DNA of 64,000 nucleotides from Gemmatimonadota bacterium (GCA_041500125.1 JBGQLP010000009.1:2767-66766), one strand, 5' to 3'. Shown: positions 1-58,216, numbered from the stretch's first letter. Notes: a model not told the origin generated them from the sequence alone. A program made the numbers and translations.

Positions 1-865
1 AGTGAGCCGTGGCGGCAACCAGCACTGCACCTGCGGGAAGCGGGTCGCCGTAGTCCTGCGCGAGACGGCGGCTGTACTCCTGATAGCCGATGGTGGCGAG
101 CGAGTGATTGGCCAGCGCGCGCTGTACATCCGGGTGCGAGGCGGATTGCCAGAGCAGCTCCCAGAGGTCAATGCTCGCCCTGCCCGGAATGTTCAACAGC
201 TCCCATAGCGACAGCTCGGTCGCAGGGGCGAACGTGCCCCCGGCGAGCCGAACCGGTAGCTCCAGTCCCAGCTCGCCGGCCGCTCCCGCGGCAGCCACTG
301 CGAGATACCGCACGCTTCGGGCAAGCCAGAGCGCCTCGAAGTTGGCGATGGTCCCGCCGGAGGTGAGATGCCCCCAGCTGGTCGCGGGGTCGTATCCGAT
401 CATGCGGGCGAGATCGGCGGCCACTTCCAGCTCGAGCCGGGTGGTGACCGGAGATATTTCGGCGGCGATGTTGTTGGGATTGTACAGCATGGTGGCGAAG
501 TAGCCGATCTGCGACGCAATCGTCTGCTCCGCCACCATATGGCCCTTATACCTGCCGCTGAAGAAGGGAACATCCCGCTTGAGCTCGGCCAGAAGACCCA
601 TGAGCTCCTGAGTCAGGACCGCTACGCTCTCCTCGTAACCTTCCTGTCGCTTGTCGGTTTCCCGAATGGTAAAGCCATCCTCCGGATGATAGTTCCGCCT
701 CCAGAAGACGTGGTCCCGCAGAGCTTCGACCACCAGCCGCTCGAGCAGGTCGGCGTTCTCCGCCCGCGGGCCCAGGAACCAAGCGCGCAGAGCCGCGCCA
801 GCATCCCCGGAGGATGACGCTCTGGGGCGGCCGGCCCGGTGGCGTTCCGACGCCAGGGCGCTCAT
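1..865 (-). CDS. PLP-dependent group II amino-acid decarboxylase (tyrosine decarboxylase-like), partial, runs off left edge
   Basis: Not in the ORF track; translated by hand from ATG 865, which overlaps the upstream TGA: ...WFLGPRAEN...PFFSGRYKGHM...MLYNPNNIAAEISPVTTRLE...WGHLTSGGTIANFEALW. Confidence 0.85.
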   Translation of the reverse strand, partial: MSALASERHRAGRPRASSSGDAGAALRAWFLGPRAENADLLERLVVEALRDHVFWRRNYHPEDGFTIRETDKRQEGYEESVAVLTQELMGLLAELKRDVPFFSGRYKGHMVAEQTIASQIGYFATMLYNPNNIAAEISPVTTRLELEVAADLARMIGYDPATSWGHLTSGGTIANFEALWLARSVRYLAVAAAGAAGELGLELPVRLAGGTFAPATELSLWELLNIPGRASIDLWELLWQSASHPDVQRALANHSLATIGYQEYSRRLAQDYGDPLPAGAVLVAATAH

Positions 866-1929
866 GCTATTCCGGGCTTCTGCACGATCAACGCGGTCAC
901 CATCCCGAACATGCCGTGCTCCGACTCCGCGTGCGGCAGGATGTGACAGTGAAACGCCCAGGTGCCGGGATTGGTGGCCTTTACCAGCACGTCCCACCGC
1001 TCGCCCGGCGCAATGTTCAGGGTGTCGCATTTCCACGGGGCCGGCTGGTCCCAGCCATCTTTGGCGATCACGGTCATATGCATGCCGTGGAGGTGCATCG
1101 GATGGATCATCATGCCCTCGTTCATGAACCGGAGCCGGACGGTCTGACCCTGCTTGCACACGACCGGCTCGGTGGCGGGAAAGCCCTTGCCATTGAGGGT
1201 GTAGCCATGGGAGCCGTCGTTCAGCACCATCACGTAGTCGACATCGGCGCGGTGCGCGGCCATCGGCCGTCTGGGCTCCACGATGAACGCACCCAGCAGT
1301 CCCTGGCCCACTTGCACCGCCGCGTTATGGTGCGAGTGGTACATGTGTGAGCCGGCATTCGGAACCGTGAACTCGTAGGTGTAGGACTCTCCCGGCTTGA
1401 CCGGAGGCTGGGTGATGAACGGCACGCCGTCCTGGTCGTTTGGCAACTCGAGCCCATGGAAATGAATCGCCGTGGACTCCGGCAGTTTATTGGTGAGGTT
1501 CACCCGAACCCGATCGCCTTCACGAACCCGGATTTGCGGGCCGGGAACTTGATGGTTGTAGGCCCATGCCTTCACTCGCCGGCCGGGCTCCACCTCCCAC
1601 TGGATTTCCTCGCAGGTCAGGTCGTATACCTTGACTCCCTTCTCGACTCGGGGATGGAGGAGCTGATTGCCCTTCCCATCCGTCTTCGCGGGAAAGGCCT
1701 TCACGCCTCTTTCGTGCATCGCATCCATGGCGTCGGCCTGGGTCCGGCGCGCGACCGCCGGATCTGCCGGCGGCAGGGAATCTAGTGTCCTGGCGCCGGT
1801 GTTCGCCGCCTTGGTCTCGGCACACGAGCCCAGGCTCGAGACGATAGCCGGCAGTGCGATGGCGGCGGCGGCTCCCCGGCGAAGAAAATCGCGGCGAGCA
1901 GTGCCTGCAGCGTTCCAGGTCTCCGACAC
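862..1929 (-). CDS. Tat-exported two-domain multicopper oxidase (small laccase, type B-like)
   Basis: RRDFL twin-arginine signal; HFHG, YHSH, HPMHLHG and HCHILPH...M motifs; T1 Cys only in domain 2. Confidence 0.9.
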   Translation of the reverse strand: MSETWNAAGTARRDFLRRGAAAAIALPAIVSSLGSCAETKAANTGARTLDSLPPADPAVARRTQADAMDAMHERGVKAFPAKTDGKGNQLLHPRVEKGVKVYDLTCEEIQWEVEPGRRVKAWAYNHQVPGPQIRVREGDRVRVNLTNKLPESTAIHFHGLELPNDQDGVPFITQPPVKPGESYTYEFTVPNAGSHMYHSHHNAAVQVGQGLLGAFIVEPRRPMAAHRADVDYVMVLNDGSHGYTLNGKGFPATEPVVCKQGQTVRLRFMNEGMMIHPMHLHGMHMTVIAKDGWDQPAPWKCDTLNIAPGERWDVLVKATNPGTWAFHCHILPHAESEHGMFGMVTALIVQKPGIA

Positions 1930-1974
1930 GGGATCCTCGGGCGTATGAGTGACGTGTAGCGGGGGGATGATGCA

Positions 1975-2028
1975 ACTCTATTCCCGGCTCGTGAAGCCTG
2001 TGTGGGGGAAGTATGAAGCTTGCTTCAT
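1975..2028 (-). promoter_or_regulatory. CTTCA-box array plus -10 for the multicopper oxidase/decarboxylase operon
   Basis: TGAAG at 1992 and 2014 (22 bp apart); palindrome ATGAAGCTTGCTTCAT at 2013-2028; TAGAGT (minus) at 1980-1975. Confidence 0.65.
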
Positions 2029-2053
2029 GGATGGGGTAGCGGTTCTTTCTCTC

Positions 2054-2536
2054 TCAGTCCCGTTCCACCGACTTGGATCCCTGCACTCCTGGGGCACCCG
2101 CTCGAAGCTCGGCATGCCGAATGGGCCCTCCGGTCCAAGCCGCAAGACCGAACAGCCCAGAGCTGACGATCAGTCCCAGGAGCACCAGCACCGAGAGGAC
2201 GCGCGTGCGGCGGGGCCTGTGCCTCTCTCCCCACAAGGCGAGGGCGGCCAACGCTCCGGTTGCGAGCACGGCGATCAGTCCAACCTTGGCATTTTCCTCA
2301 TGATCCTCTATGGTTGCCTTCTCAACCCCGATCATATCCTCGACCTGTTCCTCTGCCGGTTCTCCGGTCAGATAGACCGGTACCGTCAACACCGCCAGGA
2401 CTACCGTAGCCCACAGGGTGGTCCGGATCAGGCTGGGTGAGCTGCGTATCAGCCCCACTGCCAGGAGCAATACGAGCAGGACGGTACCCAGGACGGGAAT
2501 GTGGTTCGCCATCAGGTGGATATGGGCCCAGTTCAT
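2054..2536 (-). CDS. 4-TM membrane protein with conserved-looking His residues (DUF2231-like, possible heme b binding)
   Basis: HIHLMANHIP, IEDHEE, IRHAE; hydrophobic helices; SD GAGGAG. Confidence 0.7.
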   Translation of the reverse strand: MNWAHIHLMANHIPVLGTVLLVLLLAVGLIRSSPSLIRTTLWATVVLAVLTVPVYLTGEPAEEQVEDMIGVEKATIEDHEENAKVGLIAVLATGALAALALWGERHRPRRTRVLSVLVLLGLIVSSGLFGLAAWTGGPIRHAELRAGAPGVQGSKSVERD

Positions 2537-2572: not shown

Positions 2573-2617
2573 AGTTTACACTGCGGTTTGTGAAGAAGCT
2601 CTGACCCAACTGTGAAG
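2573..2617 (-). promoter_or_regulatory. CTTCA-box array plus -10
   Basis: TGAAG/TGACC/TGAAG at 2591/2602/2613; TAAACT (minus) at 2578-2573. Confidence 0.7.
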
Positions 2618-2632
2618 GTCACGTTTGGAGCG

Positions 2633-5344
2633 ATGACCAGCTCAAAACCCTCGGTGTCCTGGCACTCCCTCGCGGCCGCGGAAACCCTGGCCGTCTTGGA
2701 CTCACGACCGGATGGACTGAGTCCGGCAGAAGCCGGGGAACGTCTCGCCCGTTATGGCCCCAATCAGTTTCAAGTGTCCCGCCCAGTATCGGCCTGGACC
2801 GTGCTCCTTGGCCAGCTGCGCAGCGTCATCGTGTTGCTGCTCGGCGCCGCCGGGATGGTCGCGTTCTATACCGGTGATGTCTTGGACGGCGCGGCCATCA
2901 TTGCGGTCCTCGTCCTCAATGTCGGGATCGGTTTTGCCACGGAGCTCCAGGCCCGCCGGGCCATGGCCGCTCTCCTGGCACTCGAGGTAGCCCGAGCCAG
3001 AGTGATCCGGGGAGGCCAGTTGATGGACATCGAAGCGCCCAACCTGGTCCCCGGTGATGTGCTGGAGGTCGCTGCAGGAGACGCCGTGCCTGCCGATGCC
3101 CGATTGCTCGAAGCCATCGAGCTGCGCACGCTGGAAGCGTCACTGACCGGCGAACCGATGCCGGCAGAAAAGGTGGCGGACGCAAAGCTCCATGGTGATG
3201 CCCCGCTGGCAGACCGGACCTCGATGATCTACAAGGCGACCACAGTCGTGGCGGGTCGCGGCCGCGCGGTGGTGGTGGCGACGGGAATGGCCACGGAGGT
3301 CGGCCGTATCGGTGCTTTGGTCAGCGGAATACCTGAGGAGCAAACCCCTCTCGAACGGCGGCTCGACGCGCTGGGCCGACGCCTGGTCGCAGTGGCCCTT
3401 GCCGTCGCCGGGCTGGTCGCCTGGCTCGGTATGCGTCAGGGAATGGCCGTCGGCGAGCTGCTCCAATCCGCGCTCGCCCTCGCCGTCGCCGCCGTCCCTG
3501 AGGGACTTCCCGTTGTCGCCACGATCGCGATGGCCGTGGGGGTCCGGCGGATGGCGCGCCGGCGGGCACTAATCCGGCACCTGCCGGTGGTCGAAACCCT
3601 GGGCTCGGCGACCACCATCTGCACCGATAAGACGGGCACTCTCACCGCCGGCGAGATGACGGCGACCGTAATCCAGCTGGACAATCTCGAGGTGTCGATC
3701 ACCGGAGCCGGTTATGCGCCCGAGGGTGAGTTTCGAGTCAAGGATGGCCGTATCGACCCCCTCGCCGATCCCCGGCTCGAGGCGGCGATCCGGATCTGCG
3801 CCCTGTCGATCAGGGGCGGGGTAAGCCGCGTGGGAGACTCCTGGGCCGCCGTGGGTGATCCGACCGAAGCCGCGCTTGCGGCCCTGGTGGGAAAGGCCGG
3901 ATTGAGCCGCTCTACGCTGCTTGCCGAATGGCCGCAGGTAGGGGAAGTGCCGTTCACCAGCGAACGGATGTTCATGGCCAGCTTTCACCGCACGCCATCC
4001 GGCCTTCTGGCCTGCGTAAAGGGGGCGCCCAGACGGGTACTCCAGCTCAGCAGCCGGGTTCTCACGAACAGCGGTTCCGGGGAGTTGGACGACCCGCAGC
4101 GCCAGCTGCTCCTCAACTGGAACAGCCGGCTCGCTGCCCGAGGATTGCGGGTGTTGGCACTGGCCCAGAAGCAAGTATCCAGTGCCGACGAGGCTGCGCT
4201 GGGCGGACTGACCTGGGTCGCACTGGTGGGCTTGAGTGATCCTCCAGCGCCGGGCGTCCGCGAGACTATCGCCACGTTCAGAGGCGCGGGGATCCGGACC
4301 GTCATGCTCACAGGGGATCAGCGCCTCACCGCCGAACGGATCGCGGAGGAGCTCGGGCTCCGCTCGCCGGGAGACACGATTCTCGATGGCAGTGAGATCG
4401 ACCGCCTGTCGGATCCGGAGCTTCGCGATAGGGTGCAGCGGACGGCAGGATACAGCCGAGTCAGCCCCGAGGCCAAACTGCGAATCATCAGCGCCTACCA
4501 GGCGTGCGGTGAGGTCGTGGCGATGCTGGGAGATGGGGTGAATGACGCAGCCGCGCTGAGGAAGGCGGATATCGGCGTCGCCATGGGCAGGCGGGGCACC
4601 GACATGGCCAAGGAGGCCGCCGATCTCATTCTGGAGGACGATCAGTTTCCCACGATCGCGGTGGCGGTGGAAGAGGGGCGGGTCGTCTTTGACAACATTC
4701 GGAAATTCGTGTTCTATCTTTTCAGCTGCAACCTGGCCGAGATACTGGTGCTCCTCGGCGCGGGGGCAGGGGGATTTCCTCTGCCGCTGCTTCCGCTGCA
4801 GATCCTGTGGCTCAACCTGCTGACCGATACCGTCCCGGCCCTCGCGCTCGCGGTGGAGCCGGCTGAACCCGAAATCATGCGGCAACCACCCCGCAACCCA
4901 CGGGAGGCAATTCTCTCGGCCCCGATGATCAAATCGATCCTCGGCTACGCGCTGCTCATCAGTGGGTGCACCCTCCTGGCCTTCTGGTGGGGACTCACGC
5001 ACTCACTGCACAGCACGCTCCACGCCACCACCCTGGCCTTCATGACGCTGGCCTTTGCCCAGATCTTTCATCTGGGCAACGCACGCAGCGCATCTCCGGT
5101 ACTGGCTCCAGCCCGAGTAGCCAGCAACCGCTTTGCCCTCCTTGCGGTGGTGATCACTGGTGGGTTGCAAGCCCTCGCGGTCAGCCTGCCCCCACTGGCT
5201 CACACGCTACGGCTATCTCCGCTGCGACTCGAGGATTGGGCGATGGTGCTGAGCCTGGCGGCCATCCCAGCGGTACTGGGACAAGGGATCAAAGTGTTCA
5301 GGAGGGCCGCCACCGCTTCGCCTTCTCACTTTAGCGTGTCGTGA
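2633..5344 (+). CDS. P-type IIA cation-transporting ATPase (CtpF/PacL-like)
   Basis: [32 protein letters not shown]; ATG 2633 after GGAG preferred to GTG 2612. Confidence 0.92.
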
Positions 5345-5809: not shown

Positions 5810-8266
5810 TCAGCATTCCGCCGGCCCGGCGGCGATTCGCGTCGCGACCTTGGCCAACGAGTCGGGATTGAGTGAAATGGAATCTATACCTAACTGAACC
5901 AGGTATTCCGCGAACTCGGGATAATCACTGGGTGCCTGCCCGCAGATACCCACCCGGCGGCCCTTCTTGTGCGCGGCTGCGATGACCATTTGAATCAGCC
6001 GCTTCACGCCCAGGTCCCGTTCGTCGAAGAGATGGGCGAGTAGCTCGGAGTCCCGGTCAACCCCGAGCGCAAGCTGGGTGAGGTCGTTGGAGCCGATGGA
6101 GAACCCATCGAATAGGTCGCTGAACTCCTCGGCCAGGATCACGTTGTTCGGGATTTCACACATGACGTAGACCTCGAGGCCGTGCTGCCCTCGGATCAGG
6201 CCGTTCTCCGCCATCTCGCGCAACACCCGCCGTCCTTCCTCGAGGGTCCGGCAGAAGGGCACCATCACCTTGACGTTGGTGAGGCCCATCTCCTCCCGCA
6301 CCCGCCAGATTGCAGCGCACTCCAGCGCAAAGGCGTCGCGGTAGCGTTCGTCGTAATAGCGGGACGCGCCCCGAAATCCGATCATCGGGTTGGACTCAAC
6401 CGGCTCGAACGCGCTCCCACCGAGGAGTCCGGCATATTCGTTGGTCTTGAAGTCGGAGAACCGGACAATTACCGGCCGGGGGTAAAAGGCCGCCGCGATC
6501 TGAGCCAGCCCCATGGTCAGGCGGCTGATGAAGAACTCCCAGGCGGGACGCAGGTCCCCGATCCGCTGCCGGATCTCAGCCAGCGCCTGCGGATCCGTGA
6601 CCCGCTCGGGATGGAGCAGCGCCATGGGATGAATGCCGATCCAGTTCGACACTATGAACTCGATGCGAGCCAACCCGACCCCCTCCGTCGGCAGCTGAGC
6701 CAGATAGAAGGCGCGCTCCGGGTTGGCCAGGTTGAGCATCAAGGGTACCGCGGGTGTGGGCAGGGTCGCGGGGTCGATTTCTTCACGGTCAAAAGGCACG
6801 ATGCCGGCGTACACCTTCCCGTCGTCTCCTTCAGCACAGGAGATGGTCACCTCCTGGCCATCCGTCAGGGTGTGGGTCGCCCGGACGGTGCCCACGACAC
6901 ACGGTATTCCCAATTCACGGGCAACGATGGCGGCATGACAGGTCCGGCCTCCTTCGTCGGTAACCACCGCCGCGGCTGCCTTCAGCACCGGCTCCCAGTC
7001 AGGATCGGTCATCGGTGCCACCAGAACCTCGCCGGGGCGAAACGCGCTCAACTCCTCGGCAGAGTGGATGACCCGTACCCGCCCGCTCGTCACCCGGTTG
7101 CCCACGGCCTGACCGGTCAGCAGCACCTCGCCCGCGCCCTGGCGGCGGAAGAACTCGAGCTTCGGACGAGTGACCTGGGAGTGAACGGTCTCCGGCCGAG
7201 CCTGGAGGATGAACAGCTCGCCGGTGTGACCATCTTTGGCCCACTCGATATCCATCGGGGTGGGACGTCCAGCCCGCTCGGAGTAGTGATCTTCGATGGC
7301 GAGGGACCAGTGAGCGAGGGTCAAGACGTCGTCGTCACTCAGCACCGCGCGCCGGCGGTCCCGCCGGGGCACCCGGACCTCTTTCACCGTCTTCGCGCTT
7401 TCCTCGGCATACACCAGCTTCACCGCCTTCTCCGGCACCTCCCGGCGGATGATGGACCGGTGTCCCGCACGAAGCGTCGGCTTGTGGACCCAGAACTCAT
7501 CCGGCCGTACTCGTCCCTGGACCACCGTTTCGCCCAGACCCCAGGCGCCGGTGATGAGGATTACATCGCGGAATCCGCTTTCCGTATCCAGCGTGAAGAT
7601 CACCCCGGCCGAGCCGAGGTCGCTGCGGACCATCTTCTGAACGCCGACCGACAGGGCCACGTCACGGTGAGCGAACCCGCGCTGAGCGCGATAGACGATG
7701 GCGCGGTCGGTGAAGAGGGACGCCATGCAGCCGCGAATCGACCGGTCCAGCGCCTCGCGGCCTCGGATGTTCAGAAAGGTCTCCTGCTGTCCCGCGAACG
7801 AGGCGCTCGGCAGGTCCTCCGCGGTTGCGCTGGAGCGAACCGCCACGTCGGTGCCTTCATCGTTCGAACCGGCGGAGAGTGCGGTGTAGGCCGCGTCGAC
7901 CGCCGCGGCCACCGGTGCCGGGAGCGGGGCGCCCGCGATCCGGGCGCGGATAGAGCGAGCCGCCGATGCCAGTGCGGTAATATCCGTAACATCGAGATGA
8001 TCCAGCTCGGCATAGATGGCGGAATCCAGTCCCGCTTCCTTCAGATGGAGTCGGAAGGCGTCGGACGTCAGAGCAAAGCCGTCGGGTATCCGGATTCCTT
8101 TCGGCGCCAACGCTCCGATCATCTCGCCCAGAGACGCGTTCTTGCCCCCGACCCGCGGCAAATCGTCCAGATTGAGCTTGCTAAACGGTACGACGTACTC
8201 AGGCACCGTGCTCGGCTCGGACTTCGAGATCTGCCGGCCCTGAATGGCCACAGTGGCGTGTCCCAT
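5810..8266 (-). CDS. ppsA: Phosphoenolpyruvate synthase (pyruvate, water dikinase)
   Basis: VGGKNASLGE, AVRSSATAEDLP, GGRTCHAAI phospho-His, SIGSNDLTQ, ICGQAPSD. Confidence 0.96.
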   Translation of the reverse strand: MGHATVAIQGRQISKSEPSTVPEYVVPFSKLNLDDLPRVGGKNASLGEMIGALAPKGIRIPDGFALTSDAFRLHLKEAGLDSAIYAELDHLDVTDITALASAARSIRARIAGAPLPAPVAAAVDAAYTALSAGSNDEGTDVAVRSSATAEDLPSASFAGQQETFLNIRGREALDRSIRGCMASLFTDRAIVYRAQRGFAHRDVALSVGVQKMVRSDLGSAGVIFTLDTESGFRDVILITGAWGLGETVVQGRVRPDEFWVHKPTLRAGHRSIIRREVPEKAVKLVYAEESAKTVKEVRVPRRDRRRAVLSDDDVLTLAHWSLAIEDHYSERAGRPTPMDIEWAKDGHTGELFILQARPETVHSQVTRPKLEFFRRQGAGEVLLTGQAVGNRVTSGRVRVIHSAEELSAFRPGEVLVAPMTDPDWEPVLKAAAAVVTDEGGRTCHAAIVARELGIPCVVGTVRATHTLTDGQEVTISCAEGDDGKVYAGIVPFDREEIDPATLPTPAVPLMLNLANPERAFYLAQLPTEGVGLARIEFIVSNWIGIHPMALLHPERVTDPQALAEIRQRIGDLRPAWEFFISRLTMGLAQIAAAFYPRPVIVRFSDFKTNEYAGLLGGSAFEPVESNPMIGFRGASRYYDERYRDAFALECAAIWRVREEMGLTNVKVMVPFCRTLEEGRRVLREMAENGLIRGQHGLEVYVMCEIPNNVILAEEFSDLFDGFSIGSNDLTQLALGVDRDSELLAHLFDERDLGVKRLIQMVIAAAHKKGRRVGICGQAPSDYPEFAEYLVQLGIDSISLNPDSLAKVATRIAAGPAEC

Positions 8267-9310: not shown

Positions 9311-9352
9311 GATCTCCCAAGCTGCACGACTGGTGCACGATCGGGAAGAAGC

Positions 9353-9397
9353 CTTCATACAAGCTTCACCTTCGATTCAGCGCGGGACCGGCAGCTT
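9353..9397 (+). promoter_or_regulatory. CTTCA-box array upstream of CBS gene
   Basis: CTTCA/CTTCA/ATTCA at 9353/9364/9375; CAGCTT at 9392. Confidence 0.7.
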
Positions 9398-45860: not shown

Positions 45861-45864
45861 AACC

Positions 45865-45988: not shown

Positions 45989-46231
45989 TCACTCCTTATT
46001 TGAATCCGCTTCTGGCTCGGTCAGCTCGGCCTCGTTCTGCAAACCCTGCCGAAAGACCAGGGCCCGGAGTGCGGTTTCATCCAGCCCGCGGAACAACTCG
46101 GCGACCTTTTGCAGCGCCTGGGCTCGCCCGTTCGTGGCGAAAGTTCGCTCAATCTGTTCGGCCAGCAAGCGGACCAAGTGCTCGCGGGATATGACGTCGG
46201 CCTGGGCGCTCTTGCTCACGTGGTGTTTCAT
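45989..46231 (-). CDS. Small hypothetical protein
   Basis: ATG 4 nt after the baeRF stop; amphipathic helical sequence. Confidence 0.6.
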   Translation of the reverse strand: MKHHVSKSAQADVISREHLVRLLAEQIERTFATNGRAQALQKVAELFRGLDETALRALVFRQGLQNEAELTEPEADSNKE

Positions 46232-46235
46232 GGGC

Positions 46236-47432: not shown

Positions 47433-47469
47433 GTGTTGCTCCCTCATCTGGTAGATTGATGCCAGATGC

Positions 47470-48141: not shown

Positions 48142-48585
48142 ATGAAACTCACGAAGGCGCTGCCCACCTCGGTCGCCACGGTGCGCGACGAGTTCGATCG
48201 GCTGTTTGACCGATTCTGGAACACCGGCCTGTTCGGACCTACGCCCCGTGTCTTCGAGACGATGTGGCAGCCGAGCCTCGATTTCTCGGAGAATGACAAG
48301 GAGTACATCGTGCGGCTCGAGGTGCCGGGCATTCCCAAAGAGGACCTCGAGGTCAACGTGGATGGCCGGACTCTGACCGTCTCGGGACGGCGGGATTTCG
48401 AACGGGAAGAAAAGACGGAGGAGTACTTCTATCGCGAGCGGGAGGGGGGCAAGTTCGTCCGCACGGTCCAGCTCCCAGGATCGGTCGACCAGTCGAAGGT
48501 GGCAGCCACCTATCAGGATGGAATCATGACGATCCGGCTGCCGAAGACCGAGCCGAGCGCCAAGACGCGGATCCAGATCAAGTAA
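48142..48585 (+). CDS. Hsp20 / alpha-crystallin small heat-shock protein
   Basis: EVPGIPKEDLEV, RER.GGKFVRTVQLP, ATYQDGIMTIRLPK, terminal IQI. Confidence 0.95.
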   Translation: MKLTKALPTSVATVRDEFDRLFDRFWNTGLFGPTPRVFETMWQPSLDFSENDKEYIVRLEVPGIPKEDLEVNVDGRTLTVSGRRDFEREEKTEEYFYREREGGKFVRTVQLPGSVDQSKVAATYQDGIMTIRLPKTEPSAKTRIQIK

Positions 48586-50766: not shown

Positions 50767-51299
50767 ACTTTCTCCAGGAGCGTAGTGCGCCGGACGACTT
50801 CTTCGGGGTGAAGCAGGAAATACTCGAGCAGTTGAAACTCCTTGGGGGTGAGATCCAGCCGCTTTCCATCTATGGTCGCGACATGCCGGAGCCGGTCAAG
50901 CGCAATCGGAGGATAGCGCAGGACTTCCAGCCGCTCGGCACCCCCACGGCGGTGGAGGGCCCGGATGCGGGCCAGGAGCTCGTCAAACTCGAACGGCTTC
51001 GCGAGATAATCGTCGGCCCCGGCATCCAGCCCGCGCACGACGTCCTCCACCGCGTCGCGTGAGGTCAGCATCAGGATGGGCGTAGCCCGTCCCTCCCGCC
51101 TCAGCTCGGTCGCGACCTGGAAGCCGCTCTTCTTGGGGAGCACAATATCGAGCAGGATGACATCGTAATCGTACACGTGAGCCAGCAGGGTGGCCTCGTC
51201 GCCATCCGGCGCCACGTCCACGATATACCCTTCTTCCTTCAGCCCCTGTTCGATGAACCCGGCGACCTTCCGGTCGTCTTCCACCACGAGGATCTTCAT
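50598..51299 (-). CDS. OmpR/PhoB-family response regulator
   Basis: REC (VVEDD, LLD, GADDYLAKPF) plus winged helix (LTPKEFQLLEY, VW, SNVVDVHVGNLRRKL, TVRGVGF). Confidence 0.96.
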   Translation of the reverse strand: MKILVVEDDRKVAGFIEQGLKEEGYIVDVAPDGDEATLLAHVYDYDVILLDIVLPKKSGFQVATELRREGRATPILMLTSRDAVEDVVRGLDAGADDYLAKPFEFDELLARIRALHRRGGAERLEVLRYPPIALDRLRHVATIDGKRLDLTPKEFQLLEYFLLHPEEVVRRTTLLEKVWDMHFDPESNVVDVHVGNLRRKLSEAAKEQLLATVRGVGFSLRRGGDGAEISPAL

Positions 51300-51306: not shown

Positions 51307-51361
51307 AATCTGGGGAGTAGTGGTTAAGGTCCTCCGGAAGCCTTCATGAAGCTTTCTTCAC
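51307..51361 (-). promoter_or_regulatory. Autoregulatory box array for the response regulator
   Basis: GGAAG/TGAAG at 51336/51347; palindrome ATGAAGCTTTCTTCAC at 51346-51361; CAGATT (minus) at 51312-51307. Confidence 0.6.
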
Positions 51362-52602
51362 GTTCGTGGGCTAGCGGGAAGCTCGAGCACAAAGCAGCCG
51401 CCGCCGCCGGCGGGCCGGGCCAGCGCCCGTAGCTCCCCGCCGAGCAGTCGGGCCAGCCGCCGGGAGAGAGGTAGCCCCAGCCCCATGCCGCGGGTGTCAC
51501 CCACGTCCTTGCTGATGTAGATGTCGAAAATTCGCTCGATCTCGCTCTCCTCGATCCCGGATCCCTGGTCCAGCAGGGTGTAGATCACGATGGATTCCCG
51601 GCCGGTGACCTCGAGGCGGACTGTGCTCCCCTCCGGCGTATGCTTGATGGCATTGCCCAGCAAGTTGATCAGGATCTGCTCCACCCTGCTGGCGTCGGTC
51701 TCGCAGCTGGGAAGATCCGGGGCGACGTCTACCTGGAGCAGGATCCGTTTGGCCTCTGCTGCTGGTGTGACCCGAGCGACCGCCCGCCCCGCCATGGAGC
51801 CTGGGTCGGTGGCCCGGATCACCGGTCGCAACCGGTCTTCGTCGAGTCGGCTCAGATCGAGCAGGTCGTTGATGAGTCCGACAGCCTGCTTGGCCGAGTC
51901 GAGCACCTCGAATGCGGCTTTGGGGACGGTGGCCGGGTCTTTCTTGCGCACCATCATCTCTGCCCAGCCGTGCACCGCGGCCAGAGAGTTCCTCAGTTCG
52001 TGGTTCACCATGGCGAAGAAGCGCTCCCGGGTTCGATGGAGCTGCTGCACTTCCTCCAGCAGCCGGGCGCTCTCTTCATGCAGCCTCGCGTTCTCGACCG
52101 CCGCAGCAGTGTTGGCCGCAAGGAGCACGGCGATGTGCTCATCCTCGTCGGTGAACCGCTCGCCCCCCAGCTTCTCCGTGAGATACAGATTACCGAAAAT
52201 GCCCCGTTTCCCCACGATCGGGACCCCAAGGAACGATTGCATTGGAGGATGGTGGGGCGGGAAACCGTAGGACTCGGGGTGTTTGGTGAGGTCGGGGAGG
52301 CGAATCGGTCTCGCCGCGCGGATTACCAACCCCAGAATGCCATGGCCCCGCGGCACGTCTCCGATAAGCGCACGTTGCTGGGCATCGATGCCGTGGGTGA
52401 CAAAGCTCTCCAAGAGCCGGCCATCCGGTGCCAGCACCCCAACGGCGGCGAATCGGGCTCCGATGACCTCGGCCGCCACCTCTACTACGCGCTCGAGCAC
52501 CCCTTCCAGGGAGACTTCGGTGATCAAGGAGGAGGCGGCTAAGACCAGCCGCTCCAGCCGTGGGCTGCCCGGAGCCGGACGGGCGATTGATGTCTGAGTC
52601 AC
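51358..52602 (-). CDS. Sensor histidine kinase: DosS-type heme-GAF + HisKA + HATPase
   Basis: GAF with HPESYGFPPHHPPMQSFLGVP..GNLYLTEK; H-box NHELRNSL; NLLGNAIKHT, DQGSGI, GMGLGL; GTG 52602 likely start. Confidence 0.92.
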   Translation of the reverse strand: MTQTSIARPAPGSPRLERLVLAASSLITEVSLEGVLERVVEVAAEVIGARFAAVGVLAPDGRLLESFVTHGIDAQQRALIGDVPRGHGILGLVIRAARPIRLPDLTKHPESYGFPPHHPPMQSFLGVPIVGKRGIFGNLYLTEKLGGERFTDEDEHIAVLLAANTAAAVENARLHEESARLLEEVQQLHRTRERFFAMVNHELRNSLAAVHGWAEMMVRKKDPATVPKAAFEVLDSAKQAVGLINDLLDLSRLDEDRLRPVIRATDPGSMAGRAVARVTPAAEAKRILLQVDVAPDLPSCETDASRVEQILINLLGNAIKHTPEGSTVRLEVTGRESIVIYTLLDQGSGIEESEIERIFDIYISKDVGDTRGMGLGLPLSRRLARLLGGELRALARPAGGGGCFVLELPASPRT

Positions 52603-52648
52603 TCCCAAAGCTATAGCGAAAGCTCGCCCGTCCGAAACCCCGAAAAAC

Positions 52649-52693
52649 ATTCGTACTGCCTTAATGCTTTCTTCACGGCCCCGCCGGTAGGCT
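52649..52693 (+). promoter_or_regulatory. CTTCA-box array plus -10 for the USP operon
   Basis: ATTCG/CTTAA/CTTCA at 52649/52660/52671; TAGGCT at 52688. Confidence 0.7.
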
Positions 52694-52713
52694 GCAAGCA
52701 AAGGAGGAGGCAG

Positions 52714-53574
52714 ATGAGACTACGGCACATTCTGGCAGCGACCGACGAGTCGGACGCGGGGCGGCAGGCGGTCAGGACCGCGACAGCTCTGGCGTCCCGC
52801 GCTTCTGCCCGGGTCACGATCCTGCGGGTGATTGCGGTCGAGGCTACGCGGCGTCTGGTGAGCGTCGGCCACGGCACGGCTCCCACGAATGGGGAGGACG
52901 AGGCTGCGCTGATGTATCTGCGCCGGTGGCTCGAAGCCGATGTCCTCTCGCCGGATGCGACCGAGGCGACCGAGCTTGCCATCGCCTGCGGGATCCCCGG
53001 TATCGAGATCTGCCGCTTTGCCGAGCAGGCCGAGGCCGATCTCCTGGTGCTCGGCCGCAAGCGCCATTCCCCAATGATGCGCCTCCTGTTGGGCGATACC
53101 GCCGACGCGGTGGCCCGGAGGAGCCGATTCCCCTGCCTGTTCGTACCTCCCGCAGCAGCTGAGATCAGGAAGGTGCTGGTGGCGCTGGACGGCTCGGACC
53201 GGGGCCTCAACGTACTGAACCAGGCCTGCGACTTCGCCCGGTACGCGGGCGCTGTGGTGGAAGCAGTCACGGTAGAACGGAGACCGGGGGACGAGCCCTT
53301 ACAGCTTGTTCCCATGCTGCCGGTGGCTCGGAGCTCCTCGCTGGAGATCCGGGTGCGCGAGGTGTTGGCCCGGGACGGGTTCCCCGACGCTGCCCTGGCC
53401 ATCCGGCGAGGGGAAATCCTCGAGCAAGTTGTGACTCAGGCGCAGGAGACTGGAGCCGACGTGCTGGCGATTGGCTATCACCGAGGTGGCCCGCCGGGCG
53501 TGCTCGAGGCCGGCAGCACCGCGCGGCGGCTGGCTCATGCGGCGCCGTGTGCCGTTCTAACCATCCCGCTCTAG
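52714..53574 (+). CDS. Tandem universal stress protein
   Basis: ILAATDES, LLGDTADAV, GSTARRLAHAAPCAVL. Confidence 0.9.
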   Translation: MRLRHILAATDESDAGRQAVRTATALASRASARVTILRVIAVEATRRLVSVGHGTAPTNGEDEAALMYLRRWLEADVLSPDATEATELAIACGIPGIEICRFAEQAEADLLVLGRKRHSPMMRLLLGDTADAVARRSRFPCLFVPPAAAEIRKVLVALDGSDRGLNVLNQACDFARYAGAVVEAVTVERRPGDEPLQLVPMLPVARSSSLEIRVREVLARDGFPDAALAIRRGEILEQVVTQAQETGADVLAIGYHRGGPPGVLEAGSTARRLAHAAPCAVLTIPL

Positions 53575-53582
53575 GAGAGTCC

Positions 53583-53795
53583 ATGACATGCAACGTGGGC
53601 AGGATCGAGCGGATCGCGCGATTGATCGTCGGCGTGATGATCCTCGGCCTCTATGGCGCCCTGACACCCCCGTGGCGTTACCTCACCCTCATCGGCCTTC
53701 TGCCCTTGGGAAGCGCCCTGACTGGCTTTTGCCCCATCTACGCGCGCCTCGGCTGGAACCGTTGCCAGCCACCTGCTGAGAGGAGGACCTCATGA
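53583..53795 (+). CDS. DUF2892 (YgaP-like) small membrane protein
   Basis: CNVGRIERIAR, TGFCPIY. Confidence 0.85.
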   Translation: MTCNVGRIERIARLIVGVMILGLYGALTPPWRYLTLIGLLPLGSALTGFCPIYARLGWNRCQPPAERRTS

Positions 53796-54775
53796 CCGCC
53801 ACCACCCCTGGACGGGTACAGTCCATCCTGGTGCCCCTCGACGGGTCCTCGCTTGCCGAGCAGGCTATACCGATAGCCGTCGCAATTGCCGAGCGTGCTC
53901 GGTGCAAGCTCAAGCTCGTGCTCATCCATGAGCCACTACTGCTGATGGAGCCGGGGCCGGCTTACACCAAGATTGAGCTTGCCATGCAAAAGGCTGATCG
54001 GGAATACCTGAAGTCGGTCACCGCTCGTCTCCGCGAGCGACTCGGGCGGTCCGTTTCGTCGGCGGTGCTTCGGGGGATGCCGCTTGCTCAAACCCTCACC
54101 ACCTACATCCGCGAGCTCGGGGCCGATCTCATAGTCATGACCACCCACGGGCGTGGCGGAATCCGCCGCGCATGGCTCGGCAGTATTACCGACCAACTGA
54201 TTCGCATGTCCGAGGTTCCCATCCTGGTGGTCCGACCTAGCGACGCCAAACCAGCCGAATCTTCTGTCCGTCTGACCGAAATACTGGTACCGCTGGACGG
54301 CTCGCCGCTGGCCGAAGCAGTCCTCGAGCCCGCGGCTGCACTCGCCCGCCTGTGGGATGCCGAAATGTCGCTGGTGCAGGTCGTCCATCCTGTCGTTTTG
54401 ACGAGCGACCCGCCGCTTCCTTTCCCCACCGGCTACGCTGACCAGATAACCAAGATCCGGCGCGAATCGGCTCAGGATTACATCCGGGACGTCGCGGAGC
54501 GCCTGCGGGAGTCAGGGGTAAAGGCTTCCGGGGTGGCGGTGATTGGTGGCGAGGTCGCCGAGACACTGCTCGACCTTGCGCGCCCCGAGCGCACCAGCCT
54601 GGTGGCTGTGGCGACTCACGGTCGGGGAGGTGTCCGCCGCCTGGTGGTCGGTAGCGTTGCCGACAAGCTGGTGCGTGGGGCGGAGGTGCCGGTGCTGGTG
54701 GTGAGGCCCGTTGGCCGGCGTTCACGCCGGACCTCGGAGGAGACCAACGTAACGGTCGGTGCACGTTCGTCCTGA
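53792..54775 (+). CDS. Tandem universal stress protein
   Basis: ILVPLDGS twice; THGRGG..GSVADKL. Confidence 0.93.
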   Translation: MTATTPGRVQSILVPLDGSSLAEQAIPIAVAIAERARCKLKLVLIHEPLLLMEPGPAYTKIELAMQKADREYLKSVTARLRERLGRSVSSAVLRGMPLAQTLTTYIRELGADLIVMTTHGRGGIRRAWLGSITDQLIRMSEVPILVVRPSDAKPAESSVRLTEILVPLDGSPLAEAVLEPAAALARLWDAEMSLVQVVHPVVLTSDPPLPFPTGYADQITKIRRESAQDYIRDVAERLRESGVKASGVAVIGGEVAETLLDLARPERTSLVAVATHGRGGVRRLVVGSVADKLVRGAEVPVLVVRPVGRRSRRTSEETNVTVGARSS

Positions 54776-54834
54776 ACCTCTCGCCCGGTCAGAGCGAACC
54801 ACTCGCTGGAGGCGCTAGGCCAAAGGAGTAGGTC

Positions 54835-55821
54835 ATGTCGCGGAGTACTTCATTCCGCTCTATTCTCGTGCCGGTTGACGGATCTCGGCTGGCCGAGCAG
54901 GCAGTGCCCATCGCGCTCGCGATTGCGGAACGGGCTCACAGCAAGGTGAGCCTGGTGCTGGTCCATCAGATCCACCAGCCGCACGTGTTGATGGAGCCCG
55001 CCCACGTATATACCCGGACTGAAGCGGCGCTTCAGAAGACCGAGCGCGACTACCTCAGGGCCCTGGTTAGTCGGGTGCGGCAGAGCATGGGACGGGCGGT
55101 CTCGTCCGCCATGCTCAAAGGTCGGGTGGCAGTGACCTTGGCGGAGTACGTTAAGGACCTCAGCCCGGATCTCGTCGTCATGACCACCCACGGCCGTGGC
55201 GGAGTAAGACGGGCATGGCTCGGCAGCGTTGCCGACCAGCTGATCCGCTCGTTGGACGTCCCCATTCTCCTGGTGCGCGCTGGCCCACCTGAGTCCACAG
55301 GTAGTCCGGCCAATTTCGGCGAGATTCTGGTACCGCTCGACGGGTCTCCCTTGGCCGAGGCAGCCCTGGAGCCGGCTATGGTCATAGCGCGGCTCTGGGA
55401 TGCTGAAATCTCACTGGTGCAGATTGTACAGCCGGTCCTCCTGGCTACCGATCCCCTGCTGCCGCTTCCCTCATGGTACGATGACCAACTCACGACCGTG
55501 GAGCGTGACGCCGCTCAGGATTATCTCCGGGACGTCGCCGAGCGCCTCCGCGAGCAAGGCGTAAAGGCCTCCGGAGTTGCGGTGATCGGCGGCGGAGTGG
55601 CTGAGGAGCTCCTCAGTCTTGCGCGTCCCGGGCGAGTTGGGCTCCTGGCCATGGCTACTCATGGGCGTGGCGGCGTACGGCGTCTCATGCTCGGCAGCGT
55701 GGCCGACAAGCTGGTGCGCGGGGCGGAAGTGCCGCTGCTGGTCTGCCGGGTTACCGGAAAGCGGGCGAAGCGGGCCCCAGGAAAAGCCAGTGCACCGGCC
55801 CATGCGCGCGCGGGAGTTTGA
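54835..55821 (+). CDS. Tandem universal stress protein (close paralogue of the preceding gene)
   Basis: Shares SAQDY/AAQDY-RDVAERLRE-GVKASGVAVIGG and GSVADKLVRGAEVP with 53792-54775. Confidence 0.93.
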   Translation: MSRSTSFRSILVPVDGSRLAEQAVPIALAIAERAHSKVSLVLVHQIHQPHVLMEPAHVYTRTEAALQKTERDYLRALVSRVRQSMGRAVSSAMLKGRVAVTLAEYVKDLSPDLVVMTTHGRGGVRRAWLGSVADQLIRSLDVPILLVRAGPPESTGSPANFGEILVPLDGSPLAEAALEPAMVIARLWDAEISLVQIVQPVLLATDPLLPLPSWYDDQLTTVERDAAQDYLRDVAERLREQGVKASGVAVIGGGVAEELLSLARPGRVGLLAMATHGRGGVRRLMLGSVADKLVRGAEVPLLVCRVTGKRAKRAPGKASAPAHARAGV

Positions 55822-56934: not shown

Positions 56935-56935
56935 G

Positions 56936-57334
56936 TCAGCGCTCCCTGACGCGAGGCCATGTGTTAATCACAAAGGCCCAGCCGCCCGCGAGCTGCAGGA
57001 GTGCGGCAACAACAAGGAGCCAGCCCGTCGGCGCCCCGATGGCCCGAGCCGGCTCACCGAAGATTCGGAGGAGCAGGCCGGCATTGAGCAGCCAGTAGCT
57101 CGCCCATCCCAGCCGTTGGCTCCCCCGTGATCCCTCGGATGACCGTTTCGGGAACATCCAGAACGCCACTCCGAAGATGAGCTGGGTCAGCCACCCAAGG
57201 ACGAGCATATGCACGTAGGTGGGCCAGAGGACCGAGCTCCAGGTGGTCAAGGCCACCTGGAGAATGCCAGTAAGCAGGGACGCCAACAGGTAAATGAGGG
57301 CGGTACGGATGAACCAGCGACTGAGTCCGGGCAG
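56936..57334 (-). CDS. 4-TM membrane protein, paralogue of the neighbour; CTG or mutated start
   Basis: In-frame extension LPGLSRWFIRTALIYL upstream of 57286; HMLVLGWLTQLIFGVAFWMFP. Confidence 0.65.
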   Translation of the reverse strand: MPGLSRWFIRTALIYLLASLLTGILQVALTTWSSVLWPTYVHMLVLGWLTQLIFGVAFWMFPKRSSEGSRGSQRLGWASYWLLNAGLLLRIFGEPARAIGAPTGWLLVVAALLQLAGGWAFVINTWPRVRER

Positions 57335-57473
57335 GGCGCTAAACCATCAGCTGTAGCAGATTCACTCGACCTCGCGAAGATGTCAGGCCGCGTCAGGTTG
57401 AAGCGCTAGTATAACCAGAAACGCGGTCCTGCCCCACCGGGAAGCTTCCTCACTAAATACCGAGGGACCAAGG

Positions 57474-58169
57474 ATGCCTCAGACGCCACACGTCGAGCGG
57501 CACTTCACCGCCGGCGAAACGGTTCGTGACATCGTCATCGGGATGTCGGATGGGCTTACAGTGCCGTTTGCCCTGGCCGCCGGGCTGTCCGGGGCAGTGG
57601 CTTCGTCACAGATCGTCGTCACCGCCGGATTCGCCGAGGTGGCCGCCGGATCCATCGCCATGGGCCTCGGCGGCTACCTGGCTGCTCGAAGCGATGCCGA
57701 GCACTACGCCAGTGAACTGGCCCGGGAGGAGCGCGAGATTGTCGAGGTCCCGGAGGTGGAGGCCACGGAGGTAACAGCGATCTTGCAATCGTATGGCGTG
57801 GAGCGAAGCGAGGCCGCTGTCGTGGTAGCGGCGATGCGCCGGAAGCCGGACAAGTGGCGGGATTTCATGATGCGCTTTGAGCTCGGGCTCGAGGAGCCGG
57901 ATCCCCGACGCGCTCTCCGGAGCGCGCTCACGATCGCCGGGTCCTATATTGTGGGCGGACTCATCCCGCTTTCGCCCTATCTCATCGCGCGCTCCGTGCC
58001 CCGGGCTCTTGCTGCTTCGGTCAGCCTGACCCTTCTGGCCCTGCTCCTCTTCGGCTACGTCAAGGGGCGGTTCACCGGCGCCGGCCCCTTACGGAGCGCG
58101 TTCCAGACCGCACTGATCGGCAGTCTTGCCGCCGGAGCCGCTTTTGCCATCGCGAGGGCGATCTCATGA
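57474..58169 (+). CDS. VIT1/CCC1-family Fe/Mn transporter
   Basis: RDIVIGMSDGLTVPFALAAGL, SIAMGLGGYL, FMMRFELGL. Confidence 0.93.
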   Translation: MPQTPHVERHFTAGETVRDIVIGMSDGLTVPFALAAGLSGAVASSQIVVTAGFAEVAAGSIAMGLGGYLAARSDAEHYASELAREEREIVEVPEVEATEVTAILQSYGVERSEAAVVVAAMRRKPDKWRDFMMRFELGLEEPDPRRALRSALTIAGSYIVGGLIPLSPYLIARSVPRALAASVSLTLLALLLFGYVKGRFTGAGPLRSAFQTALIGSLAAGAAFAIARAIS

Positions 58170-58216
58170 CAAACCCCGCCGAGCCGGAAGCTCTAGCGGG
58201 CGATCTACATCGAATA

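Follow-up and report, generated by a model that had tools for sequence, protein, structure and literature searches.

A probable low-oxygen survival regulon gathered around a rewired Dos-type two-component system in a Gemmatimonadales bacterium

The dormancy regulon of Mycobacterium tuberculosis comprises about 48 genes under the control of the DosS(DevS)/DosT-DosR(DevR) system. A contig of a Gemmatimonadota bacterium (GCA_041500125.1, JBGQLP010000009.1, here C9) raises the question of whether a regulon of this kind can be found in an unrelated diderm phylum, gathered in one place and equipped with a sensor and regulator of its own. We analysed 64 kb of this contig (C9:2767-66766), referred to below as the window, from an assembly of 3.48 Mb in 155 contigs that is 99.3% complete. 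A preliminary description had proposed that a DosR-like regulon fills 58 kb or more of it as a self-contained dormancy island. Genes were called by third-position G+C, and 67 open reading frames (ORFs) were scanned with Pfam and 60 with NCBIfam. We consider the window to be a clustered low-oxygen or gas-stress survival regulon under a rewired Dos-type two-component system, with a probability of roughly 0.6. The evidence comes from a repeated promoter element, from the genes that carry it, from the sensor kinase and regulator encoded among them and from the distribution of all these in relatives. The positions of the features are collected in Table 1.

The operator candidate is a direct repeat, CTTCA-N6-CTTCA(-N6-CTTCA), with two or three units and an 11-bp period, which we call the CTTCA box. 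The last repeat is followed by about 12 nt and then by a TAnnnT -10 box, and nothing resembling a -35 hexamer was observed in these promoters. CTTCA or its complement TGAAG was found 45 times in the intergenic 9% of the window, where 11.6 occurrences would be expected from the rest of the window. The pattern TGAAG-N5-7-TGAAG (at most one mismatch) gave 33 matches in the window, 28 of them at spacing 6, and ten shuffles gave 2 to 8. Matches to TGAAG-N6-TGAAG (at most one mismatch) are about ten times denser in the window than in the rest of the genome (0.44 vs 0.043 per kb; 28 of the 174 genome-wide matches), and the window, which is 1.8% of the genome, holds 12 of its 21 triple repeats (at most two mismatches). 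A weight matrix used at 18 bits or more found 38 loci, of which 24 belong to the window, 14 to other contigs and none to the other 11 kb of C9; this 24 of 38 split is circular as the matrix was trained on window sites, and the consensus counts above are free of this circularity. Each of the 24 window loci is either intergenic or at the 5' end of an over-long ORF. Twenty-one of them point at a called gene that starts 4 to 137 nt downstream (68 nt for the operon that opens with a 162-aa ORF). Targets are less certain for the remaining three, which are the box ahead of HemJ (316 nt), one ahead of an unannotated 133-aa ORF (198 nt) and the mirror-image reading, at 2009-2041, of the multicopper-oxidase site. 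The latter promoter site (1989-2041) contains a perfect palindrome (ATGAAGCTTGCTTCAT), so that the matrix reads it on both strands, and its half-sites may be inverted rather than direct. The strongest box of the window, at 33.5-34.4 bits, belongs to the HemJ leader.

Two operators of known systems were also considered and rejected. For Fnr/Anr control, TTGA-N6-TCAA had no match in the window, and of the 19 matches to TGA-N6-TCA, 17 lie inside genes and the two intergenic ones both fall in a duplicated element. The Dev-box-like palindrome GGGMC-N4-GKCCC was found once, inside ppsA, where 1.37 matches would be expected.

About 22 units were found to be boxed. From left to right they include the multicopper oxidase, a TgpA_N-like membrane protein, PpsA, CBS1 with the L,D-transpeptidase, MgtA, Acg, BON, the six-gene GroEL/HemG operon and DUF302, and then the phosphoribosyltransferase (PRTase)-hydrolase-esterase-USP1 operon, USP2 (USP, universal stress protein), USP3-archease-RtcB-HPF, the HemJ leader, HemN and both GGDEF genes. 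The remaining units are those of a phospholipase D (PLD) family protein, Prs, CBS2-baeRF, Hsp20, the regulator with a P1B ATPase, and USP4-YgaP-USP5-USP6. At the level of families, the DosR-regulon counterparts named earlier are therefore found under one operator, namely the USP, Hsp20, Acg and CBS genes, USP3-archease-RtcB-HPF, baeRF and the PRTase/esterase-like set, with the P-IIA ATPase left without a box.

All of the gene families in the preliminary description were recovered where it had placed them, including the YcbB-type L,D-transpeptidase, BON, HemG, HemJ and HemN, and each of the six USPs was observed to carry two Usp domains. The Acg assignment was borne out by NF047509 (246.7 bits vs a cut-off of 199) and by a sole PDB match, which is Acg itself (2YMV). 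Scores above the NCBIfam cut-offs were obtained for HemN, Acg, the phosphoenolpyruvate (PEP) synthase, MgtA and GroEL. Of the set described as PRTase, dienelactone hydrolase and EreA-like protein, the first and last stood, and the middle member is an alpha/beta hydrolase with a weak DLH match (E 6e-4, below cut-off). The baeRF protein is likewise present, with the Rv2629/MSMEG_1130 'ribosome hibernation factor' models matching it weakly (E 1e-14 to 1e-16, far below cut-off), and judged by these matches it is probably a distant relative of the Rv2629 family.

The genes are physically gathered, as had been claimed. Twelve of the 13 Usp-domain matches of the genome lie in the window, the thirteenth being in a 924-aa open frame elsewhere, and all six stand-alone USPs of the genome are boxed there. 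The proposed extent of 58 kb holds in part. On the right, the co-regulated genes end at about 55.8 kb with USP6 rather than at 58.2 kb, VIT1 and FdxA being without a box, which gives an island of about 56 kb. The left limit was not reached, as the contig ends 2,766 bp to the left of the window; boxed genes extend into the first kilobases of the window, and further left a co-directional pyridoxal-phosphate-dependent (PLP) decarboxylase and a Na+/H+ exchanger run to the contig end. The description of the island as self-contained needs qualifying, since 14 of the 38 predicted sites are on other contigs. Their predicted targets are a second Hsp20 and a third CBS gene (Hsp20-2 and CBS-3), cytochromes c, YceI, a carboxylesterase and an LTXXQ protein beside metal-efflux genes. 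Hsp20-2 and CBS-3 lie side by side on contig C45, each with a box, and both Hsp20 genes of the genome are therefore boxed. We also noticed that the stretch of C45 at about 13.0-25.6 kb has a boxed NapA-like molybdopterin oxidoreductase, next to it four multihaem cytochrome genes (with MtrC/MtrF-like domains) and another multicopper oxidase, and then Hsp20-2 and CBS-3. This set may form a branch of the regulon devoted to anaerobic respiration.

The sensor and regulator that had been proposed were found side by side, a kinase with a DosT/DosS-type GAF-A domain next to a boxed regulator of the OmpR family. The five best of 60 PDB matches to the kinase GAF domain are DosT 2VZW (E 3.9e-43, 151 bits), DevS 2W3D (E 7e-35) and 2Y79, 2Y8H and 4YNR (E about 1e-35), and in the alignment it is about 50% identical to the GAF-A domains of M. 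tuberculosis DosT and DosS. Both haem-pocket residues of DosS, His149 and Tyr171, are kept in the kinase (GFPPHHPPM and FGNLYLTEK), the residue numbering offset having been verified against the E87G and E87A mutant chains 2Y8H and 2Y79. In the portion of the literature available, His149 is the proximal haem ligand of DosS and Tyr171 the distal residue (PMC9062744). The kinase GAF domain appears closer to DosT than to DosS because position 87 is glycine, as in DosT. Binding of haem and gating of the kinase by O2, NO or CO would be expected from this DosT-like GAF-A domain. The genome holds one copy of the DosT-type GAF domain. The family to which the kinase belongs is large, with 6,766 proteins at E<=1e-20 among 8,000 scored candidates; the best 120 members, among them a 430-aa form, all have GAF and HisKA, nearly all with HATPase_c, and those that are named in their sources carry generic kinase names apart from one JGI record labelled 'DevS'. 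A search of the ESM Atlas with the GAF region yielded generic GAF clusters of several phyla, none of them decisive.

In the regulator, we take Asp51 (in LLD) to be the expected phospho-acceptor and Lys101 (in AKPF) to be the conserved receiver Lys. The description 'DosR-like' fits the regulon families and the sensor; it does not fit the regulator, which has a Trans_reg_C domain and is of the OmpR rather than the NarL family. Regulators of the PhoB/OmpR group activate transcription at tandem direct repeats that replace the -35 element and have an 11-bp period. The CTTCA repeat has this PhoB-type activation geometry, from which we infer the adjacent regulator as its predicted binder. Directly downstream of the regulator is a P1B-type ATPase in which a TPC motif was observed at residue 320 in place of the usual CPC/SPC membrane motif; TPC is presumably the marker of the little-studied P1B-5 group.

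The box and its neighbours were then compared across relatives, where 80 loci with a regulator orthologue at 80-95% identity were kept from 376 relatives. Among these 80 loci the kinase is adjacent in 67, a USP4-like gene diverges from the kinase in 59 and the P1B ATPase adjoins the regulator in 57. Matches to the simple consensus occur at 0.21 per kb and concentrate in two places, between the USP and kinase genes (67+8) and in the 500 nt ahead of the regulator (32). Of 60 distinct sequences from between USP and kinase, 48 have a best triple register with no more than 3 mismatches in 15, followed by TAnnnT; four of the 12 that failed had been clipped at extraction. The regulator orthologue (at least 85% identity) is present in 14 of 18 same-genus genomes, or in 13 of 17 without the unpublished genome G003. 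In five regulator-bearing congeners the triple repeat outnumbered a reversed-pattern control (6/1, 10/1, 10/7, 10/1 and 12/3; 48 vs 13 in total), and in five genomes without the orthologue, four of them same-genus non-bearers and one from another family, it did not (0/2, 3/4, 3/1, 4/3 and 4/2; 14 vs 12 in total). Two bearers gave 14 and 7 USP-domain matches; three non-bearers, whose genomes are 89-96% complete, gave 0, 0 and 2. As related genomes are not independent, these presence and absence counts are indications and not statistics; they indicate that kinase, regulator, box and USPs are present or absent together within the genus, as an accessory module.

The box also recurs independently in single relatives. 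The Hsp20 orthologue of congener G013 has a 24.6-bit site about 85 nt upstream; the Acg homologue of the same genome has no box of at least 15 bits within its 4-kb locus. In the near-complete congener G004 the system is divided between two clusters, of about 11 and 19 kb, and both have a kinase-regulator pair of their own; the 11 matrix matches in the 220 kb examined all lie inside these clusters, as do 12 of the 14 USP domains of G004. RtcB was found in none of five same-genus genomes (E<=1e-30), Acg in one of five congeners and a close Hsp20 orthologue in one of five. The conserved core consists of the USP(s), the kinase, the regulator and the P1B ATPase, around which far more has accreted in this genome, and the island is unusually large for its clade. 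More distant regulator homologues (65-77% identity; genomes G022, G024 and G030) occur in other contexts, with a GAF kinase alongside in G030 only. Box matches are few or absent there, and therefore the system was not traceable beyond the close clade.

The host is a soil or sediment Gemmatimonadales bacterium. Judged by record title, 78 of the 80 best regulator-encoding loci belong to Gemmatimonadales, Gemmatimonadota or Gemmatimonadaceae and the other two carry actinobacterial bin labels, and the DNA runs that contain the stretch are labelled as sediment and soil metagenomes.

Taken together, these observations suggest the following course of events. A soluble kinase would sense O2, NO or CO through haem held in its DosT-like GAF-A domain and, on a 'no oxygen' signal, would phosphorylate the adjacent OmpR-family regulator. 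The phosphorylated regulator would then bind the tandem CTTCA repeats in the -35 region and activate transcription as PhoB does at pho boxes. About 22 boxed units would be switched on together, including those of the USPs, Hsp20, CBS, Acg, HPF, HemN and HemJ, ion pumps, diguanylate cyclases and the regulator itself. Growth would be predicted to stop, with ribosomes, RNA and proteins protected and haem synthesised independently of oxygen.

Several observations weigh against a low-oxygen regulon of Dos type. The Glu87/His89 relay residues of DosS are Gly/Leu in the kinase (Gly/Arg in DosT). Dos kinases have two GAF domains and a HisKA_3-type dimerisation domain paired with a NarL-family regulator, and Pfam found a single GAF region (63-203), no GAF-B, and HisKA of the PF00512 type rather than HisKA_3. 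As the relay residues, GAF-B and HisKA_3 all differ, the signalling logic may therefore differ from that of DosS and DosT. The best NCBIfam match of the regulator is to the CopR/CusR subfamily (235.2 bits vs a cut-off of 279.2). Kinship with individual M. tuberculosis proteins is distant in places, as the USPs match Rv2623 at E 5e-11 at best and the two CBS proteins, which are present as described, are generic CBS pairs rather than relatives of Hrp1: none of their 52 PDB matches (E<=1e-5) is named as an M. tuberculosis protein. Genes with neither a box of at least 18 bits nor a boxed co-directional gene directly upstream are the P-IIA ATPase, MprF-like, AckA, alcohol dehydrogenase (ADH), PRTase2 and DUF2267 genes and the kinase itself. 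To these may be added the circularity of the matrix split and the outcome of the synteny check, in which the island was not conserved as a unit across relatives, given the smaller clusters of G004 and the counts for RtcB and Acg. Furthermore, what was observed is the anatomy and conservation of the operator, and the binder, the signal and the physiology are predictions.

Contigs 92-99% alike that cover baeRF, CBS2, Hsp20, the regulator and USP4 to USP6 were found in RNA libraries, namely two metatranscriptomes of flooded rice paddies and one of soil, which together represent two studies. These contigs come from relatives and give presence only, with no level, strand or start, and RNA libraries can hold DNA, which is a further point on the opposing side. 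Little or no cover was found over the kinase gene (51.3-52.7 kb), at 56.0-57.3 kb and over most of 59.3-62.0 kb, a DNA run covering all 30 bins; such missing cover is no evidence of silence.

The alternative that survives best keeps the same box and regulator and replaces the signal, which could be redox, sulfide or energy status, or the genes could form a general stationary-phase or desiccation programme. We regard this as rather unlikely. The loss of the Glu87-His89 relay speaks for it, and USPs, Hsp20, HPF and BON/OsmY are general stress genes in a host whose run labels point to soil or sediment, where drying and starvation are common. DosS is also reported to respond to H2S and to the redox state of its haem, in the part of PMC9062744 available. 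However, the haem-ligand His and distal Tyr are conserved, the glycine at position 87 is DosT-like, and both the oxygen-independent HemN and HemJ are boxed, all of which favour the low-oxygen regulon.

An improbable reading is that of a metal-homeostasis system of the CopRS/CusRS kind, which would act primarily on the P1B ATPase and the multicopper oxidase and secondarily on the stress genes. The P1B ATPase adjoining the regulator and the box on the multicopper oxidase keep it alive and count against the low-oxygen regulon to that extent. The ATPase follows the regulator in 57 of the 80 loci, the best NCBIfam model of the regulator is a heavy-metal CopR/CusR/CzcR one (235.2 bits), and on contig C42 a box precedes the LTXXQ protein beside HlyD/OEP efflux genes and another P-type ATPase. 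Yet the score of that model is below its cut-off, a periplasmic sensor domain would not fit into the kinase, whose GAF is cytoplasmic and of DosT type, and most boxed genes are unrelated to metals.

Marginally less probable again is that the repeat is bound by another protein, encoded elsewhere, or represents an alternative sigma promoter class, the kinase-regulator pair being merely one of the targets. OmpR-family paralogues are indeed many in the genome (77 candidates at first look, three at E<=1e-40), but box enrichment among congeners follows the presence of the regulator orthologue, a tandem direct repeat of 11-bp period is the classic geometry of the OmpR/PhoB family, and a box lies upstream of the regulator in related loci. 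Lastly, that the genes stand together by chance or shared ancestry without co-regulation would suit a gene order that is not conserved in relatives, but is very improbable given a box density ten times that of the rest of the genome, the 12 of 13 USP domains in the window and the conservation of the box across 80 loci.

Table 1. Positions of the principal features, counted from the first nucleotide of the window
Feature	Position	Strand	Evidence and remarks
Multicopper oxidase and TgpA_N-like membrane protein	862..2536	-	Pfam; leftmost boxed genes; CTTCA boxes 1989-2032, 2588-2620
P-IIA (Ca-type) ATPase	2612..5344	+	Pfam; TIGR01522 609.7 bits, below cut-off 798; no own CTTCA box >=18 bits
PEP synthase (PpsA)	5810..8266	-	NF005057 1133 bits; CTTCA box 8303-8335
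Example CTTCA box	9339..9382	+	Three repeats, 11-bp period; 45 nt before CBS1 start
CBS-pair protein CBS1	9428-9826	+	Pfam
MgtA-type Mg2+ P-type ATPase	11603..14218	-	TIGR01524 1121.9 bits vs cut-off 610.75; CTTCA box 14356-14388
Acg-family FMN-binding oxidoreductase	14458..15468	+	ORF open from 14293; CTTCA box 14365-14397
Operon: 162-aa ORF, thymidine/AMP-phosphorylase-like, PRPP-synthase-like, 169-aa ORF, GroEL paralogue, HemG	19029..24741	+	Pfam, NCBIfam; CTTCA box 18917-18960
PRTase, alpha/beta hydrolase, erythromycin-esterase-like protein	25532..28259	+	Pfam; CTTCA box 25536-25568
PRTase	25532-26254	+
Alpha/beta hydrolase	26254-26928	+
Erythromycin-esterase-like protein	to 28256	+	PF05139 E 1e-135
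USP1, USP2, USP3	28256..31279	+, -, +	Pfam; USP1 ends PRTase operon; USP3 opens RtcB operon
Two-Usp-domain proteins, first three	28256-29215, 29230-30138, 30314-31276	+, -, +	Pfam
Divergent CTTCA boxes, USP2/USP3	30216-30248, 30247-30279	-, +
Archease, RtcB, HPF	31276..33481	+	Archease 31276-31698, RtcB 31658-33133, HPF 33143-33478; co-directional with USP3; Pfam, RtcB E 3e-169
HemJ and oxygen-independent coproporphyrinogen oxidase HemN	33836..35852	+	TIGR00701, TIGR00538, both above cut-off; CTTCA boxes 33476-33519, 34438-34470
PAS-GGDEF 1, cardiolipin-synthase-like PLD, PAS-GGDEF 2, Prs	38951..44060	-	Each boxed: 39964-40007, 41903-41935, 43048-43080, 44081-44113
CBS2, baeRF, 99-aa ORF	45989..47907	-	Pfam, NCBIfam; CTTCA box 47975-48018
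baeRF	46239-47552	-
CBS-pair protein CBS2	47473-47907	-	Pfam
RNA-contig cover, CBS2/baeRF unit	46642-47155, 47487-47939
Hsp20 (alpha-crystallin family)	48142..48585	+	Pfam; CTTCA box 48040-48072
P1B-type heavy-metal ATPase without HMA domain	48748..50766	-	Probable start 50502; directly downstream of regulator; TIGR01525 506.7 bits vs cut-off 346.25
OmpR-family response regulator (receiver and Trans_reg_C), proposed CTTCA-box binder	50598..51299	-	PF00072 E 9e-30, PF00486 E 9e-27
CTTCA box of regulator	51322..51365	-	22 nt upstream of start codon; predicted autoregulation
Sensor histidine kinase: one DosT/DosS-type GAF-A, HisKA (PF00512), HATPase_c	51358..52701	-	Pfam, PDB matches; probable start 52650, 430 aa
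USP4, YgaP-like transmembrane protein, USP5, USP6 operon	52714..55821	+	Divergent from kinase; Pfam; CTTCA box 52646-52678
Two-Usp-domain proteins, last three	52714-53571, 53792-54772, 54835-55818	+, +, +	Pfam
RNA-contig cover, USP4-USP6 operon	53013-53929, 54545-55510
FdxA-type ferredoxin	58359..58631	-	NF045480 123.6 bits vs cut-off 125; no CTTCA box >=18 bits

Among the other genes of the window, the Pfam and NCBIfam scans also found an acetate kinase and a Zn-ADH. At 19514-21984 (+), within a boxed operon, a thymidine/AMP-phosphorylase-like gene (NF003338 686.6 bits) is paired with a ribose-phosphate diphosphokinase of the PRK07199 type. Taken with Prs and two stand-alone PRTases, this pair suggests that the programme extends to salvage of nucleotides or ribose, just as the lxa locus of Burkholderia discussed below includes pentose turnover. 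A DUF2267 ORF (E 2.6e-16) was observed at 44201-44482 (+), just upstream of PRTase2. A 94-nt direct repeat occurs at 33701-33794 and 40177-40270 with 99% identity, extends to about 120 nt with small differences and has two copies genome-wide. The first copy lies between the strongest CTTCA box and the HemJ start and the second abuts the stop codon of the PLD gene, and no Rfam match was found to it. The two copies bracket the HemJ-HemN-desaturase-GlpD-GGDEF1 segment, and the two GGDEF genes are 72-76% identical in DNA. The repeat and the similar GGDEF genes suggest a segmental duplication or a shared leader RNA.

The window was also inspected for traces of how the island arose. The G+C content is even (0.63-0.67) with no compositional break across the window, and no integrase family was found among the 67 ORFs scanned with Pfam; recent integration as a classic genomic island is accordingly unlikely. 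No similar DNA was found when a plasmid collection was searched with 28256-33478. The window as a whole gave no match to an Rfam family and no tRNA was called in it by ARAGORN. By eye, a fragment like the 3' half of tRNA-Ile(GAU), from the anticodon loop to the 3' end, was noticed at 58217..58260 (-), and about 46.7 kb to its left, in the same orientation, the stretch at about 11545-11565 (-) shares 18 of 20 bases with the anticodon-loop/variable-region part of that fragment. Neither place was called by ARAGORN or by the Rfam gathering search, and no tRNA-Ile was called in the assembly. Contigs of three runs have loose ends at 58217. The two tRNA-Ile-like pieces could be old attachment-site remnants.

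The flanks give little further help with the boundary. Among congeners without the system, flank synteny was limited to a KaiC orthologue in G005 only (70%), and the left-flank decarboxylase was found in none of five congeners (E<=1e-60). The whole contig is variable DNA and flank synteny draws no island boundary. From 61299 to 64000 and onward lie a KaiC homologue (NF006799 284.8 bits, cut-off 408), a PAS histidine kinase with a C-terminal receiver and an ArsA-type ATPase, with no CTTCA box; a clock-like or timing module beside the island is possible. Two short ORFs (139 and 116 aa) at 56518-57286 (-) have weak partial matches, below cut-off, to cytochrome oxidase subunit I. One of the two has a homologue near the kinase-regulator pair in 10 of the 80 related loci, and both may be real small membrane proteins and not gene wreckage.

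Half of the M. tuberculosis DosR regulon is of unknown function, and most work on it has stayed within a single phylum. In the present island its sensor domain and many of its gene families recur in a diderm phylum that is unrelated, under another regulator and operator and packed densely enough for the regulon to be read from the DNA. This offers an independent handle on the core of a programme for surviving oxygen limitation, for which the USPs, Hsp20, Acg, ribosome hibernation and RNA repair are the candidates, and a clear natural case of a sensor module connected to a different output family. For the Gemmatimonadales, which are abundant in soil and whose regulation has hardly been studied, it also provides a predicted operator and regulon, and it could plausibly explain why they persist in periodically flooded soils. 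Much more tentatively, and in our view with the odds against it, the Dos 'dormancy toolkit' might not be an actinobacterial invention but a laterally shared or ancient module whose sensor can be plugged into another regulator family. In the Gemmatimonadales the sensor, the OmpR-type regulator, the CTTCA operator and all stand-alone USP genes would then behave as one accessory unit, gained or lost within a genus and accreted here to an island of about 56 kb, the seed of which might have been an element integrated at a tRNA-Ile gene. The DosT-type haem GAF sensor would travel with USP, Hsp20, Acg, RtcB/archease/baeRF and PRTase/esterase genes.

How the island compares with known systems can now be considered, beginning with M. 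tuberculosis. The sensor GAF-A domain is homologous, with the haem His and distal Tyr kept, and the regulator gene is autoregulated as in the Dos system, which is predicted here from its box. At the family level, the tandem USPs, Hsp20, Acg-family nitroreductase, P-IIA ATPase, CBS, HPF and a ferredoxin nearby are shared with the Dos regulon, as are the baeRF/archease/RtcB and PRTase/esterase-like sets. One part of the Rv membership of the DosR regulon used in this comparison is general background. The other part was taken from the portions available of two papers (PMC3721108, PMC5069765). The differences are that the regulator here is an OmpR-family winged helix whereas DosR belongs to the NarL/LuxR type, that the operator is a direct repeat of 11-bp period in place of the palindromic Dev box, and that the kinase has one GAF with HisKA instead of two GAFs with HisKA_3. 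In addition, the phylum is Gemmatimonadota, a diderm one, and counterparts of NarK2/NarX, NrdZ, Tgs1 and PfkB were not seen in the window. With PhoB/OmpR systems the regulator shares its receiver and winged helix, and the promoters share two or three direct repeats upstream of the -10 box with no recognisable -35; the CTTCA repeat unit and the signal are different.

A closer parallel in organisation is the lxa locus of Burkholderia cenocepacia J2315, a co-regulated block of 50.7 kb and 50 genes (BCAM0275a-BCAM0323) whose genes are induced at 6% O2 and which the cells need in order to survive anoxia; its authors compare it explicitly with the DosR regulon (Sass et al. 2013, PMC3721108; this and the following statements on lxa are limited to the portion of that paper available). 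Likened by description, both contain six USPs, alpha-crystallin, a nitroreductase, acetate kinase, ADHs, a cation ATPase and two-component systems, and both are blocks of about 50 kb in a Gram-negative aerobe, strain-variable and with a G+C content typical of the genome (PMC3721108). The lxa block is driven by an Fnr/Anr-like TGA-N6-TCA motif (PMC3721108), an inverted repeat that is not used in this island. Polyhydroxyalkanoate (PHA) synthesis genes, a class II ribonucleotide reductase (RNR) and ribokinase are found in lxa only (PMC3721108), whereas RtcB/archease/HPF/baeRF, HemN/J/G and GroEL are found in this island and not in lxa. In Streptomyces coelicolor, as far as the available part of the paper goes, the regulon of the DevR orthologue OsdR is concentrated at SCO0167-SCO0219, where 8 of 11 USP genes are found (Urem et al. 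2016, PMC5069765). The OsdK/OsdR system shares with the present one a Dos-type regulon clustered around its own two-component system and an autoregulated regulator; it differs in having a true DevR orthologue and a Dev-box-like palindrome and in belonging to the Actinobacteria (PMC5069765). No literature linking Gemmatimonad taxa with Dos systems was found among the papers listed, which is absence of evidence only. Clustered DosR-like regulons, including a Gram-negative one, are already published (lxa, PMC3721108; OsdKR, PMC5069765, each as far as the available portion of the paper goes), and therefore a DosR-like regulon gathered in an island is a known kind of thing. What differs here is apparently the wiring, in which a DosT-type sensor is joined to an OmpR-family regulator and a CTTCA operator.

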